Positions 1 to 3,716 of a DNA stretch of 11,224 nt are shown here, piece by piece. How positions within the stretch are numbered: position 1 is the stretch's first letter; each line of letters begins with the position of its first letter. Under the pieces are notes generated by a model. That model saw only the letters and a list, made by a program, of their open reading frames with translations. It was not told the DNA's origin and made no database searches. Origin of the DNA: a virus. The DNA lies in UHGV virus genome UHGV-1660473; one strand, 5' to 3'. Position numbers and translations under genes: made by a program.

Positions 1-1268
1 ACGGTCGCATTCTTGTTGACTTCAATGCCGTTTTTAGCAACTACATAGGCATTGGCGGTTTCCAGAGTATTTGCTGCCCCTAACACATGGCCTGATTGAT
101 TTGTATTACTCCGCAATACATCTCGCATTACGTCACTGGCTGTCTGTCCGCTCTTTATTAAAGCGCGTGCTCCTAGCGATCCTGCTAGGCCAATACCTGT
201 CTCTTTTGCTAGGTCTTCTGGGCTGATCTGCCCGTTCTTTTGGGCGTTCACCAATGTACCTGGCAGGTTTTCTGCCAACATACTAGCCACCTTTGTGGCC
301 GCACGTTCAGCACGTGGAGCGTTGGCAACTGAAGAAGCTGCGGTAGCTGCCTTTCCTGCACCTAATCCTGTAATAAGGTAAGGTGCTAGCTGCTCACCAG
401 CCTGCGCGTATGGATCTGTAGGTTGGTCTACTGGGCGAAAGACAGGTGATATGGGCGTGTATGTGCCATCACCCACACCAAGCTTCTGAGCTGCCCATGC
501 TCCGGCTGATTGCGCCGCATTGACTACCCCCACGCCTGCGTCCATTACATCAAACGGTATATTAGCAATCCCTCTGGCCATCTGCTCTGGCGCAGCTTTC
601 AGTCCAGGATTAAGGTTAGACTTGGCTACTTGCTGCTGCGGTTCCCCGGCATTTTCATCGGCGAGAAACTGAGCTCTTTTCTGCTCCCATGAACTGGCTG
701 TTGGTAGTCCTGCTTCTATGTTCTTAAATTGCTGACGTTTTGCTTCCCATGCAGAAATATCTCCCACCTGAGAGATTTCTTTATCAAGCTCTGAGTAGTC
801 AGGCTGCTGAAGATTGCGATGTTGACTGGTTTGTGCAAACTGCAAGATTTCACTGTCATCAGGGATTATTCCGGCATCTGCAAATTTACTTACGTAATTA
901 GCCGTTTCATCTGGCAGTGTAGATTTACCGTTTCTGACGGCATTAATACGAGCATAGCCAGAATTATACCCAGCCAATGCCATACCTATATCACCAAATC
1001 GCTTCATTCCTTTATTGAGATGGTTTGCTGCGATATCCATTTGCTTTTCAAATGGCAGTGAGCGCGGATCTGTTCCACGATAACCAGCATCACTCATTAC
1101 TGAGGGCATCAGTTGAGCAAATCCTCTAGCTCCTTTCGGTGACTCGGCACTTCCGTTACCACTAGATTCATTGCCAACTAATGTTTCCATCGTCCCTGAT
1201 GGGAAACCATATTTTTCATCGAGATGACGGGAATAGGCTTTCTGTTTTTCTGTCAGTTGTGCCATCAT
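1..1268 (-). CDS. Virion internal/ejection protein with N-terminal lytic transglycosylase (SLT) domain; partial, 3' end lies beyond the window
   Basis: Minus-strand frame is open from an ATG cluster at about 1265-1274 (SD-like AAGGGA upstream) to position 1 with no stop, which is why it is absent from the complete-ORF track. My translation begins MAMMAQLTEKQKAYSRHLDEKYGFPSGTMETLVGNESSGNGSAESPKGARGFAQLMPSVMSDAGYRG...GMALAGYNSGYARI. The E-S catalytic motif, G-x-x-Q-L-M motif and AGYNSG motif are the hallmarks of family-1 lytic transglycosylases. Start overlaps the stop of the upstream gene. Confidence 0.7.
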   Translation of the reverse strand, partial: MMAQLTEKQKAYSRHLDEKYGFPSGTMETLVGNESSGNGSAESPKGARGFAQLMPSVMSDAGYRGTDPRSLPFEKQMDIAANHLNKGMKRFGDIGMALAGYNSGYARINAVRNGKSTLPDETANYVSKFADAGIIPDDSEILQFAQTSQHRNLQQPDYSELDKEISQVGDISAWEAKRQQFKNIEAGLPTASSWEQKRAQFLADENAGEPQQQVAKSNLNPGLKAAPEQMARGIANIPFDVMDAGVGVVNAAQSAGAWAAQKLGVGDGTYTPISPVFRPVDQPTDPYAQAGEQLAPYLITGLGAGKAATAASSVANAPRAERAATKVASMLAENLPGTLVNAQKNGQISPEDLAKETGIGLAGSLGARALIKSGQTASDVMRDVLRSNTNQSGHVLGAANTLETANAYVVAKNGIEVNKNAT

Positions 1269-2584
1269 TGCCATCCCTTAAGTTTTGCCTGATAGTAACT
1301 TTCCGGCAGATAGCCATGTGCGGTCACATAATCCTTAACCAGTGAAGGATCCTGCAACAGCATTTTGGTATCAGTTTCTTCGTCCTTAGATTTGGTTACA
1401 GGAATACCGAGCCCGGCAATCTGTCGTTTCTGCATTCGAATAATTACGTCCTGCGCTTTATTCAACTCTCGCAAAAATGCCTCATTGCTGGTTGCTGACT
1501 TAATGCCATTTTGAGATTGCATAAGGGCAGCCCTTTCCCCTTCGGTTGGGTTAGAGCCAAAAGTCCCTTTGAGGCTAGGCAGAATAACCTTTAGGTTGTA
1601 TTCATCAGCTTTGGCGCGTAGGCTTCGTGTGTCTTCTGCTACATCAGGAAGGAATCCAAACCCCAGCGTCAGGGGGTTATAGTTCTGCGAGCGGGTAACG
1701 GCCGAAGGATGTTTCCCTACAATTCCCGCCAGTTCATGACCCACTTCAAGCGCAGAGTTCAAGGAGTCGATGTTACCTACAACAGTATTAATTTTATCGT
1801 TCATCTTCTCCACTTTCGCCTGCTGTACCTTGCTCAGTTCAGCATTGAGCTTGTCTCTCTCGATGTCATTTTGAGCACGTCCAAGTCGTGCTTTCAGAAC
1901 CATTTCTCTCGTGCGTAGTTGGTTATCGGATAGGACTTTGAACTGCTCCATATCGAGACGTCGATTACCCTGTTCCGCATTAACCTGAGCATTATATGCG
2001 GATGTATCTGCGTTCTGCTGTGCAATGCTCTGCCCTTGCTGCTTCTCTTGAACACTAAAGTAACTATTTGGATCAGCATGGAGGTGGATGAGGTCAGTGA
2101 TTCTGTTGAATTCCTGTGGGTCATTCTGCCAAGACTGATAAACCTCTTCAGCAGGAAGACCAAATCGCTGTAATACTGGATTTGCCTGCTGAATGGCCTT
2201 CTGCATGGTCAGTGGATCTCCAGTTTGTGACGCAAGACGCAGATTCATGGCAGCGTCAGCGGTCTGTCGATTTTGCTCAGCATCAATGAATCCCATCTGT
2301 TTTTGAGAATCAGCCATAAACTGGGGATACTGGGCCATTAACTTCTGCACGCCAACACGATCATTATTAGCTACCGCACTACCCAACCGTGCCTGATATT
2401 CTTTTAACTGCTGGGAAATTTGCGCCTGCTGATTAATCTCAGCAACGCCTCTTAGCCCCTGTAGCGCCATTAAACCTACGTTTGGCTGCTGCTGATACTG
2501 CACAGGCTGAGGAACGGAAGAACGAGGAGCATTATCATTTTGCGGTGCCATGCTAGGCAGCCCGCCAAGTTGCCATGTCGCCAT
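1265..2584 (-). CDS. Putative DNA-ejection (DNA transfer) protein, Gln-rich, 439 aa; occupies the position of P22 gp20 in a gp7/gp20/gp16-like series
   Basis: Complete ORF in the track. Start overlaps the upstream stop (TAATG) and its stop overlaps the downstream start. Q-rich, coiled-coil-like composition. The functional call rests on gene order and composition recalled from P22-like ejection modules, not on a search. Confidence 0.6.
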   Translation of the reverse strand: MATWQLGGLPSMAPQNDNAPRSSVPQPVQYQQQPNVGLMALQGLRGVAEINQQAQISQQLKEYQARLGSAVANNDRVGVQKLMAQYPQFMADSQKQMGFIDAEQNRQTADAAMNLRLASQTGDPLTMQKAIQQANPVLQRFGLPAEEVYQSWQNDPQEFNRITDLIHLHADPNSYFSVQEKQQGQSIAQQNADTSAYNAQVNAEQGNRRLDMEQFKVLSDNQLRTREMVLKARLGRAQNDIERDKLNAELSKVQQAKVEKMNDKINTVVGNIDSLNSALEVGHELAGIVGKHPSAVTRSQNYNPLTLGFGFLPDVAEDTRSLRAKADEYNLKVILPSLKGTFGSNPTEGERAALMQSQNGIKSATSNEAFLRELNKAQDVIIRMQKRQIAGLGIPVTKSKDEETDTKMLLQDPSLVKDYVTAHGYLPESYYQAKLKGWQ

Positions 2585-3261
2585 TAGAATCCAAGCCCCC
2601 CAACAAGACCAATAAGCCCACCACCAATAGCGCCGGCCGCAGTTCCTATTCCAGGAACAACGGAACCAAGTTGCGCACCCGCTAAAGCGCCTGATGCTGC
2701 CCCACCAATACCACGCGCAAGACTGGATGGCTGCTGCGCCTGACCTGCACGAATAGCGCCAAGCCCCTGCAAGAGTTGTCCGGTATTATTGGCGTAGTTT
2801 TGCCCTGCTGTTGCCTGCCCTGATGCCGCATTCATCCCGACATTTAGCAGGTTTCCATAATTTTGCATTTGCCCACTAAGCCAATTGTTATAAAGCATGG
2901 GCGCAATGGAAGATAACTGGTTACTGGTAGCTGTTGAGCCAAGCCCCCCGGTAGCTTCTGCTGAGACAAGGTTCTGATAACGGGCCTGATCTGCCTGTGT
3001 TTTATATAAACCAGAACCAAAGAAATCATTCGCGGCTTTATTCTGCCCTTCCAGAGTCATCAGTCCTTGCAGTTGTTGTAAAGCAGGCAATCCGACTTCT
3101 GCATACGGCTTGAGATTATTCATCACCGTATTCCACTGCTCGCGCTGCAAATCAATTGCCTGCTGCTGGGCCTTCGCCTGAGCTTTAGAGGCACCACCAT
3201 CACCGCCTTTTTCGTATACGGCACGATTGAGATGTTTATGAGCTATATGGGTAATTAACAT
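2584..3261 (-). CDS. Putative DNA-ejection protein with Gly-rich hydrophobic C-terminus, 225 aa (P22 gp7-like position and size)
   Basis: Complete ORF in the track, overlapping both neighbours. C-terminus GIGTAAGAIGGGLIGLVGGLGF is a glycine-zipper-like membrane-insertion segment. The call is inferred from size, order and composition. Confidence 0.6.
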   Translation of the reverse strand: MLITHIAHKHLNRAVYEKGGDGGASKAQAKAQQQAIDLQREQWNTVMNNLKPYAEVGLPALQQLQGLMTLEGQNKAANDFFGSGLYKTQADQARYQNLVSAEATGGLGSTATSNQLSSIAPMLYNNWLSGQMQNYGNLLNVGMNAASGQATAGQNYANNTGQLLQGLGAIRAGQAQQPSSLARGIGGAASGALAGAQLGSVVPGIGTAAGAIGGGLIGLVGGLGF

Positions 3262-3716
3262 TCGCTGAATTCCTTATATTGTTGCCGAGTTAACTGATAA
3301 ATCGTTACGCCGACGGGTTTACCACATCTGATATAAGCATCATCAAGGTGACCAACACGGGTAGCGCCAAGCAAACGGATAATTGCCCGTCCATATTTTG
3401 TGGTGTCAGGAACCATAGTGATGCTGTTAAGGAATGGTGAGTTTTCGAGAAGCCATTTGCAGAATAATCGATGCCCTTGCAGTGCATATTCACCACGGAA
3501 TCCGGGGTCGTACACCGCATGGCATTCAACAACGCTATGCCAGAAGTTACGCACTTCATGAACGCCAGCCAGCACTAATCCTTCGTAGATGCCGAGATAT
3601 ACCGCATCAGGCTTGATGTAGTACGTGTGCCCCGGCTCAACAATATTTTCGGTATTGCCAGGATCGTTAAGAAAGGCCTGTAATCGCACAGGGTTATCAA
3701 TAAATTTTAGTTCCAT
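3255..3716 (-). CDS. Hypothetical protein, 153 aa, first gene of the ejection-protein block (position analogous to P22 gp14)
   Basis: Complete ORF in the track; its stop overlaps the next gene's start by 7 nt. No motif I can assign with confidence. Confidence 0.55.
   Translation of the reverse strand: MELKFIDNPVRLQAFLNDPGNTENIVEPGHTYYIKPDAVYLGIYEGLVLAGVHEVRNFWHSVVECHAVYDPGFRGEYALQGHRLFCKWLLENSPFLNSITMVPDTTKYGRAIIRLLGATRVGHLDDAYIRCGKPVGVTIYQLTRQQYKEFSEC

Follow-up and report, generated by a model that had tools for sequence, protein, structure and literature searches.

A P22-type ejection-protein cassette behind the primase of EcCIMP1-family satellites and its possible role in DNA delivery

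The 11,224-nucleotide sequence of virus genome UHGV-1660473 (the window, by which the whole stretch of DNA analysed is meant) raises the question of why four genes resembling podovirus ejection proteins are located directly behind a primase rather than behind head and tail-needle genes. The preliminary description of this DNA had offered two answers, an unusually organised phage genome or a transplanted module. Only the latter held up: positions 50–9715 are the central 9.7 kb of a phage-inducible chromosomal island (PICI) of the EcCIMP1 family, an element of ~20 kb that occupies a tRNA-Thr site and depends on a P22-like helper phage. Very probably, this satellite carries a separate operon of ejection proteins, which may supply a DNA-delivery function to helper virions.

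The ejection-protein genes and the island that harbours them

The cassette consists of four genes, given here in the order of window coordinates.

3–1268, minus strand: SLT/gp16-like ejection protein, 422 codons, open to the window end, with 50–1268 genuine (the 5′ 406 codons); from Pfam, PHROG and BLASTP
1265–2584, minus strand: gp20-like ejection protein, type-A allele, 439 aa; from PF16928 and phrog_917
2584–3261, minus strand: gp7-like ejection protein, 225 aa; from PF25688
3255–3716, minus strand: gp14-like protein (DUF2824), 153 aa; from PF11039 and phrog_651

All long open reading frames (ORFs) of the window are on the minus strand, and the four genes are co-oriented and overlapping, as previously described, the overlaps being 7, 1 and 4 nt. 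The last ORF had been given a length of at least 420 aa; 422 codons are indeed open, yet bases 1–49, which keep the frame open, are foreign sequence, and the genuine cassette begins at base 50. The full length of the fourth protein, 906 aa, was taken from an E. coli copy with 99.5% identity.

Profile searches against ejection-protein families, which the preliminary description had proposed as a check, matched all four proteins. The gp14-like protein matched DUF2824 (PF11039; E=1.2e-61) and phrog_651, and the gp7-like protein P22_gp7 (PF25688; E=6.6e-73, 246 bits versus a cut-off of 28), with 56% identity to P22 gp7 and 58% to Kapi1_056 of the P22-like temperate phage Kapi1. The gp20-like protein matched the N-terminal domain Inj_translocase (PF16928; E=3.7e-22, 79.5 bits versus a cut-off of 29.7) as well as phrog_917 and phrog_2534 (E~1e-44); it is 26–28% identical to Kapi1 and P22 gp20, and among 50,697 phage records a full-length match above 28.5% identity was absent. 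The full-length gp16-like protein matched the gp16 ‘DNA transfer protein' family phrog_770 (E=5e-121) over residues 187–862, is ~50% identical over 725 aa to the annotated gp16/DNA-transfer proteins of CUS-3, HK620 and epsilon34, and aligned with P22 gp16 at 46% identity over 76 aa (BLASTP; E=4e-16); its orthologues at 82–83% identity carry the precomputed domain PF26808 (Phage_P22_gp16). The N-terminal lytic transglycosylase domain that had been likened to that of T7 gp16 was recovered in this protein (SLT, PF01464; residues ~15–120, with E=6e-13 for residues 17–119 and E=1e-12 for 15–117). Its catalytic motifs E-S, GxxQLM and AGYNxG are invariant in seven satellites of several genera, and the domain is absent from P22 gp16 and Kapi1 gp16. 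By these matches, the four genes are true homologues of P22-type gp14, gp7, gp20 and gp16 in the canonical order; where either a P22 or a T7 pattern had been suggested, the likeness to T7 is limited to the SLT domain.

NCBIfam returned for the cassette proteins only a sub-threshold SLT match, and an AlphaFold2 model of the gp14-like protein from a single sequence was unusable (pLDDT 39.6). In NCBI records, several gp20 homologues are named ‘acyltransferase', and gp7 homologues ‘hypothetical', ‘DNA transfer protein' or ‘P22-gp17 family'.

Identity to Kapi1, the helper of EcCIMP1, is graded along the cassette, at 85% for the gp14-like protein (Kapi1_055), 58% for gp7, 26% for gp20 and 24% for gp16. 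A nucleotide patch in the gp14-like gene (3228–3623) is 91% identical to Kapi1 and 89% to phage Louie, and part of it (3328–3623) is 97% identical to phage vB_EcoP-720R6; the cassette DNA flanking this patch has no megablast-level similarity to any phage. The near-identity of the patch to phages argues for recent recombination between satellite and helper-type phages. In the 74 phage-context loci with the nearest gp14 relatives, the highest identities found were 86% for gp14, 61% for gp7, 32% for gp20 (N-terminus only) and 52% for gp16 (without SLT). Judged by these identities, the cassette alleles are a satellite-specific lineage.

The window corresponds to one complete contig of a metagenome (ENA ERZ505461, NODE_2412; 11,224 bp) that SPAdes assembled at 3.2x coverage. 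Its island sequence ends at sharp in-gene breakpoints on both sides, at 49/50 in the gp16-like gene and at 9715/9716 in the ash gene. The right flank (9716–11224) contains a truncated large serine recombinase (CcrB/XisF-like; 9925–10914, C-terminal half missing) and a 123-aa ORF (10787–11158), and has zero nucleotide matches in 5,426 E. coli genomes and 72,556 plasmids. Both window ends are probably low-coverage assembly chimeras, and the wider context was therefore taken from complete genomes.

Window positions 50–9715 are 99.5% identical to islands in E. coli chromosomes, and in 64 of the 5,426 complete E. coli genomes the matches span 80% or more of the window. In strain EC17GD31 (locus L001), the island measures 19.6 kb, lies between tRNA-Thr (beside proA) and yagU, and is bounded by the attachment (att) core GATAATAGGA at L001 12121 and 31702. 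Its genes are, in order, a tyrosine integrase, a helix-turn-helix regulator, an antA/B antirepressor, DUF4222, ash, several small genes, the primase, the four cassette genes, a 232-aa lipoprotein, a PerC-family regulator and a pRiA4b-ORF3 protein. Neither annotation nor Pfam and PHROG scans detected coat, portal, terminase, tail or lysis genes in this island; a canonical structural-gene order that merely wraps around a map breakpoint, the reading that the preliminary description had set against its own, was thus not found.

The same site is occupied in E. coli MP1 by EcCIMP1, a 19,963-bp PICI (Pick, Stadel & Raivio, ISME J 2025, PMC11773190; GenBank OR778291) in a region originally termed an ‘incomplete prophage' (PMC11773190). 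The MP1 locus has the gene order of the EC17GD31 island and 98.8% nucleotide identity to window positions 50–9615, and its published att core, TCCTATTATC (PMC11773190), is identical to that of EC17GD31. EcCIMP1 excises and circularises only when Kapi1 is present and induced, requires its own int and alpA (alpA being necessary for excision), and is transduced by Kapi1 at low frequency, ~4.8e3 particles/ml (PMC11773190). Other hallmarks of a PICI are found in the present variant: an integrase with flanking att repeats at tRNA-Thr (outside the window, in L001); an AlpA-type regulator (the helix-turn-helix gene after int in L001 and L002, with the Phage_AlpA Pfam domain on the Pectobacterium and L107 orthologues); a primase, recognised by its domains, with an adjacent putative origin of 3+3 iterons; and a size of 19.6 kb, within ~10–20 kb, with no capsid, tail, terminase or lysis genes. 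Helper-dependent excision, circularisation and transfer have been reported experimentally for the 98.8%-identical EcCIMP1, with Kapi1 as helper (PMC11773190). In E. coli 510016 (NZ_CP025851; L098 3450–22936), a satellite of the EcCIMP1 family with a type-C cassette (see below) sits away from tRNA-Thr and splits a DNA-methyltransferase gene of a lambdoid prophage, the fragments of which flank the island; it is thus a satellite within a prophage.

The 50,697 phage records yielded no substantial nucleotide match to the window, the matches being the ~400-bp gp14 patch, a 75-bp stretch of ash and one match of 38 bp. The ash stretch (9636–9710) resembles, at 84–87% identity, the Rha/antirepressor regions found in lambdoid and Stx2a phages.

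Control region, allelic types and conservation of the cassette

The earlier statement that the block directly follows the primase/origin region, and not head or needle genes, was borne out: the 919-aa primase and an iteron block precede it, an order that differs from that of P22 and Kapi1. Between them and the cassette lie elements of a separate control region, listed here together with the replication and early genes.

3733–3894, minus strand: 53-aa leader ORF, ending 16 nt before the gp14-like gene; annotated in RefSeq copies
3909–3960, minus strand: predicted cassette control region, with an invariant TATAAT (3933–3928) and then a palindrome ACTGT...ACAGT (3926–3909); from an upstream alignment of six satellites
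3987–4031, minus strand: intrinsic-terminator-like hairpin and T-run between the replication operon and the cassette
4343–4453, no strand assigned: putative origin, an AT-rich spacer between three direct and three inverted copies of GTTGGTTCA, beginning 26 nt past the primase stop codon
4479–7238, minus strand: primase-helicase, 919 aa (Zn ribbon, Toprim, DUF927); from PF08273, PF13362, PF06048 and phrog_1139 (E=3e-178)
7222–9715, minus strand: early-operon genes (123, 113, 200, 73, 87 and 64 aa) and the 3′ part of an ash-family gene, cut at 9715; gene-for-gene match to L001 and EcCIMP1

The hairpin and T-run recur at the same position in diverged satellites with different stem sequences. The control stretch is conserved among six diverged satellites, includes a Shine-Dalgarno sequence after the palindrome, and is the predicted promoter of the cassette; upstream of the cassette, similarity to the late promoter/qut of Kapi1 and P22 amounted to chance matches of 12–16 nt. 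The leader ORF is 85–87% conserved in Leclercia and IMG/VR satellites, with a ratio of nonsynonymous to synonymous substitution rates (dN/dS) of 0.03, and is absent from all 74 phage-context loci examined. Because of the terminator, the conserved control stretch and the leader ORF, the cassette is regarded as its own transcription unit and not as a continuation of the replication operon. The leader ORF has no match in Pfam, PHROG, NCBIfam, PADLOC or PDB; its ribbon-helix-helix look, noted by eye, is unsupported by any profile and is not claimed. PDB sequence searches with the gp20-like and gp16-like proteins likewise returned nothing significant, and PADLOC defence models matched neither the accessory genes nor the gp16-like protein.

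By its domain content, the 919-aa primase-helicase is the replication protein of the satellite, and the iteron block is a likely replication origin by analogy with the origins of Staphylococcus aureus pathogenicity islands (SaPIs) and PICIs. In Leclercia, the same block with identical iterons follows a primase of 68% identity. A second 3+3 block of GTTGGTTCA is located upstream of PerC in every full island examined, and the two blocks bracket the cassette and the accessory genes (window 4343–4453; L001 14148–14268; L005 5888–5998 and 20113–20233); they may be two origins, or one origin and one control site. The primase gene is mosaic (L009 5308–8690; L010 4475–8690; E. coli matches H140–H145), some satellites sharing only the N-terminal Zn-ribbon/Toprim part, while in others (annotated DUF5906) the similarity, at ~93% identity, is confined to the final ~840 nt of the window primase gene. 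In Leclercia (L005 5860–8687) and Salmonella (L100 5884–8711), an insertion of ~2.8 kb separates the primase/origin from the leader; that of Salmonella comprises three genes, of which one encodes a ProQ domain, and the corresponding junction of L010 harbours a PerC gene. The junction thus appears, from these insertions, to be a hotspot for cargo. Directly downstream of the gp16-like gene, the 232-aa lipoprotein (lipobox LLAGC; L001 15671–16369, L002 14632–15330, L100 14190–14888) occupies the position of sieA in P22; it matches no known family or PADLOC model, does not occur in phage contexts, and could underlie the superinfection-immunity phenotype of EcCIMP1 considered below.

Prevalence was counted in the 5,426 complete E. 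coli genomes. The satellite-specific leader was present in 499 (9.2%) and the primase allele in 360. Three cassette types were distinguished. Type A, with the gp20 allele of the window, was full-length in 72 genomes. In ~185 further genomes only the first 160 nt of this gp20 allele were found, followed by an allele switch; in this type B (for example, ABU 83972), the gp14-like and gp7-like genes precede another gp20 allele (473 aa) and a gp16 that lacks SLT (701 aa). A leader variant at 90–95% identity occurred in ~239 genomes, and in the two of these examined (type C) the leader is directly followed by gp20 (488 aa) and gp16 (701 aa), gp14 and gp7 being absent. The gp14 homologue was missing from the examined type-C and L107 satellites. 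On this comparison of cassette types, the invariant core is the leader plus the gp20+gp16 pair, with gp14, gp7 and SLT optional. The gp16-type gene of ABU 83972 (L007 10925–12740) is flagged by PGAP as ‘incomplete, missing C-terminus', though a full 701-codon ORF is present.

Outside E. coli, an island of Leclercia adecarboxylata has the same order, with a primase 68% and an ash 51% identical to those of the window and a cassette 82–88% identical; three IMG/VR contigs show the same pattern of a conserved cassette in a diverged backbone. Relatives of the gp20-like protein in a 5.8-billion-protein collection carried names from Citrobacter, Kluyvera, Klebsiella, Salmonella, Pluralibacter, Pectobacterium, Serratia and Providencia, and gene neighbourhoods were inspected for representatives (gp20 identity first).

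82%, Salmonella: satellite with int, AlpA, Bro-N/AntA, DUF4222, (ash), DUF927 primase, leader, DUF2824, P22_gp7, Inj_translocase, SLT+gp16
73%, Pectobacterium: satellite architecture as in Salmonella
69%, Serratia: satellite architecture as in Salmonella
62%, metagenome contig: degraded satellite without primase and gp14
49%, metagenome contig (L107): satellite whose cassette comprises the leader, gp20 and SLT/gp16 alone
45%, Serratia ureilytica: canonical P22-like prophage
39%, Providencia: canonical P22-like prophage

All six relatives examined at 49–89% identity were in a satellite context. Both prophages have the order terminase, portal, scaffold, coat, gp4, gp10, needle, DUF2824, gp7, gp20, (gp16), Arc/Mnt, tailspike; in no satellite locus were needle, gp10, portal or coat homologues found within 10 kb. 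A scan of genome contigs (one genome per species) with the gp20-like protein gave only two loci. Between E. coli and Leclercia satellites, dN/dS was 0.03–0.08 for the leader and all four genes (0.066 for gp20-like and 0.07 for gp7-like), with synonymous divergence (dS) >1, and the ORFs were intact in 14 of 16 loci, including all six of type A. Since the junction is shared across genera, dN/dS is low, ORFs are intact, the SLT motifs are invariant and the cassette has its own control region and leader, it is on these comparisons a stable functional module under strong purifying selection in satellites of at least five genera, not debris.

Possible role of the cassette in satellite transfer

In P22, gp7, gp20 and gp16 exit the virion and build a trans-envelope conduit for DNA (Leavitt et al., mBio 2024, PMC10883804). 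Replacement sets of these ejection proteins (E-proteins) that are only 21–26% identical are incorporated and function; gp16 and gp20, however, need to come from the same source, mixed pairs giving non-infectious particles, and gp7 is interchangeable (PMC10883804). The satellite pattern, in which gp20+gp16 is always present, gp7 is dispensable and gp14 tracks the helper, fits these rules for the P22 pair, and a model in which the proteins are loaded into helper particles is therefore favoured. Following helper induction, the satellite would express its leader-gp14-gp7-gp20-gp16 operon, and the E-proteins would be incorporated into helper procapsids in the way foreign E-proteins are in engineered P22 hybrids. 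Transducing particles would then carry a satellite-specified, matched gp20/gp16 trans-envelope conduit that delivers satellite DNA, to which type A would add a peptidoglycan-cutting transglycosylase domain like that of T7 gp16. By analogy with the P22 hybrids, we lean towards such loading of a matched gp20/gp16 conduit.

The conduit might further let satellite DNA evade SieA-type exclusion or other entry barriers in cells with P22-like prophages, which are also the cells where the satellite finds helpers. SieA-escape mutations map to the C-terminal parts of gp16 and gp20, and the E-proteins of HK620 partly resist SieA (PMC10883804). That the adaptive reason is evasion of SieA-type exclusion, or otherwise an adapted entry into recipients with P22-like prophages, is a proposal we hold to be somewhat doubtful.

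Several points weigh against a virion-borne role of this kind. Kapi1 transduces EcCIMP1 poorly (~4.8e3 particles/ml), and its titres do not change in the presence of EcCIMP1 (PMC11773190); virions may therefore be affected only subtly, if at all, or a phage other than Kapi1 may be the optimal helper. A tblastn search found no homologue of P22 SieA in Kapi1 or in the island. Two very different SieA types still excluded most of the divergent E-protein sets (Leavitt et al., PMC10883804), a tolerance of E-protein diversity that weakens the evasion idea. EcCIMP1 also raises the superinfection immunity of lysogens (PMC11773190); this could reflect an activity of the cassette, or of the lipoprotein next to it, in the resident state. 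A few cassette copies are decayed, and the promoter, operator and origin assignments are predictions from sequence.

Interference with the helper is typical of PICIs, and the cassette could instead act against phages, with gp20 and gp16 either spoiling helper virions by non-cognate co-assembly or blocking conduit assembly by incoming P22-like phages in the resident cell. Such a role would accord with the non-infectious P22 particles produced by mismatched gp16/gp20 (PMC10883804) and with the raised immunity of lysogens to Kapi1 superinfection, a phenotype for which the gene was not mapped (PMC11773190). However, Kapi1 titres from induced lysogens are unaltered by EcCIMP1 (PMC11773190), so strong poisoning of helper virions is disfavoured. 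Moreover, the cassette lies behind a terminator and an apparently regulated promoter, not among constitutive accessory genes, and the downstream 232-aa lipoprotein is an equally good candidate for the exclusion phenotype. We consider an anti-phage cassette unlikely.

The EcCIMP1 paper suggested that the genes act for the satellite in the packaging of DNA or in capsid morphogenesis (PMC11773190), which in our judgement is improbable. The slot after the primase does hold packaging or capsid-remodelling genes in other PICIs, and DUF2824/phrog_651 is labelled ‘head morphogenesis'. Yet the gp7, gp20 and gp16 families, which account for three of the four proteins, serve DNA delivery in P22 and not assembly or packaging (PMC10883804), the gp14 homologue is one of the dispensable components, and no TerS, Sid, CpmB or Rpp-like protein was detected in the Pfam and PHROG scans.

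A defective P22-like prophage remnant would account for the locus by integration at a thrW-type site and a deletion from the replication genes to gene 26 that fused the primase to gene 14, the cassette then being decaying debris. The tRNA-Thr beside proA (thrW), a known attachment site of P22-like phages, the order 14-7-20-16 exactly as in P22, the disruptions in a few copies and the first naming of the MP1 region as an ‘incomplete prophage' all speak for it. The replication and regulation genes, however, are of PICI type (AlpA, ash, Toprim/DUF927 primase plus iterons), not of the O/DnaB type of P22 and Kapi1; the cassette terminator, predicted promoter and leader ORF are absent from phages; the same junction occurs in five genera with dS >1 and dN/dS <0.1; and EcCIMP1 excises and transfers as a unit (PMC11773190). 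Furthermore, neither remnant intermediates with needle, gp10 or portal upstream of gene 14 nor neutral evolution was seen. The remnant was rejected on the PICI-type backbone, the cross-genus conservation and dN/dS, and is highly improbable. A complete podovirus genome with its ejection genes unusually placed after the replication module, for which the 11 kb window alone could be taken as it shows only replication and internal-virion genes, has practically no probability left and is refuted by the chromosomal context, as 64 complete E. coli genomes place the sequence in a 19.6 kb island that lacks coat, portal, terminase, tail and lysis genes and, beyond the ~400 bp gp14 patch, the cassette has no nucleotide match in the 50,697 phage records.

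Comparison with known systems

Known satellites hijack the capsid size, the packaging specificity or the tails of their helpers, and we know of no satellite that specifies proteins carrying DNA across the recipient envelope. A search of the accessible literature, the coverage of which was incomplete and is no proof of absence, led only to the EcCIMP1 paper and to no account of a satellite or PICI with ejection proteins. The island itself is already known as EcCIMP1; what appears to be new is the recognition of its post-primase module as an ejectosome cassette that is conserved, regulated on its own and built around a gp20/gp16 core. As a broader and more tentative reading, possible but short of probable, widespread Enterobacterales satellites would re-arm helper P22-like virions with their own matched gp20/gp16 conduit, joined in some types by gp14/gp7 and a peptidoglycan-cutting domain. 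This would be a third kind of piracy that could allow entry into cells, helper lysogens among them, in which SieA-like systems exclude P22-type injection. If a satellite does load its own ejectosome into helper particles, this would add a new layer to the conflict of phage, satellite and host, would be a piracy distinct from the redirection of capsid size and of packaging, and would explain why an experimentally verified PICI carries, in its ‘packaging module' slot, genes without resemblance to any known packaging gene. With it, the question of how satellites enter cells guarded by superinfection-exclusion systems of their helpers, otherwise hard to approach, becomes open to direct test. The family concerned is common (leader in 499 of 5,426 E. 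coli genomes), carries PerC-type virulence regulators and is routinely mis-called ‘incomplete prophage'.

The closest known system is EcCIMP1 itself, which shares with the window variant the four genes after the primase, the tRNA-Thr/proA-yagU site and the att core; in the ash region, other E. coli strains come closer (99.5%) to the window variant than EcCIMP1 does. The paper on EcCIMP1 presents EcCIMP1_017-019 as hypothetical or ‘DNA transfer'/DUF2824-like genes and as candidate packaging genes (PMC11773190). The paper never identifies the gp14-gp7-gp20-gp16 ejection set, and the word ‘ejection' is absent from it (PMC11773190).

In P22 and other Lederbergvirus phages, genes 14, 7, 20 and 16 are of the same four families, with the same order and overlapping starts as in the satellite, and gp20 and gp16 are highly divergent and mosaic in the satellite and likewise in P22-like phages. 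In P22 and Kapi1, however, the block comes directly after the tail-needle gene (P22 gene 26) within the late operon, a placement that the satellite block does not share. Unlike the P22 block, that of the satellite is preceded by primase, iterons, terminator and leader ORF and has a predicted promoter of its own, and its type-A gp16 is fused to SLT, whereas P22 and Kapi1 gp16 lack the domain. The fusion is not unique to satellites, because the complete P22-like phages Dewey and Huey (PQ850600, PQ850609) have a gp16 with N-terminal SLT that aligns with 97% of the satellite protein at 47% identity; for gp20, identity between these phages and the satellite is only ~25%.

The T7 proteins gp14-gp15-gp16 are functional analogues of P22 gp7, gp20 and gp16. 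T7 gp16 has an N-terminal lytic transglycosylase with the catalytic Glu E37 (PMC8954989), and the satellite protein has E34 at a similar position. Beyond SLT, the T7 internal core has no detectable sequence homology to the satellite proteins, the match to the T7-type phrog_342 covering residues 8–215 only.

Among other satellites, the resemblance to P4 is limited to the ash gene and, within the primase, to the Zn-ribbon/Toprim part; Sid, Psu and Delta genes were not found among the island proteins by annotation and family matches. With EcCICFT073, EcCIEDL933 and the capsid-forming PICIs (cfPICIs), the island shares the integrase-AlpA-primase backbone, a PerC-like accessory gene, the size class and helper dependence. 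After the primase, those elements harbour packaging-redirection (Rpp/TerS-type) or capsid genes, whereas the EcCIMP1 family harbours ejection proteins there.

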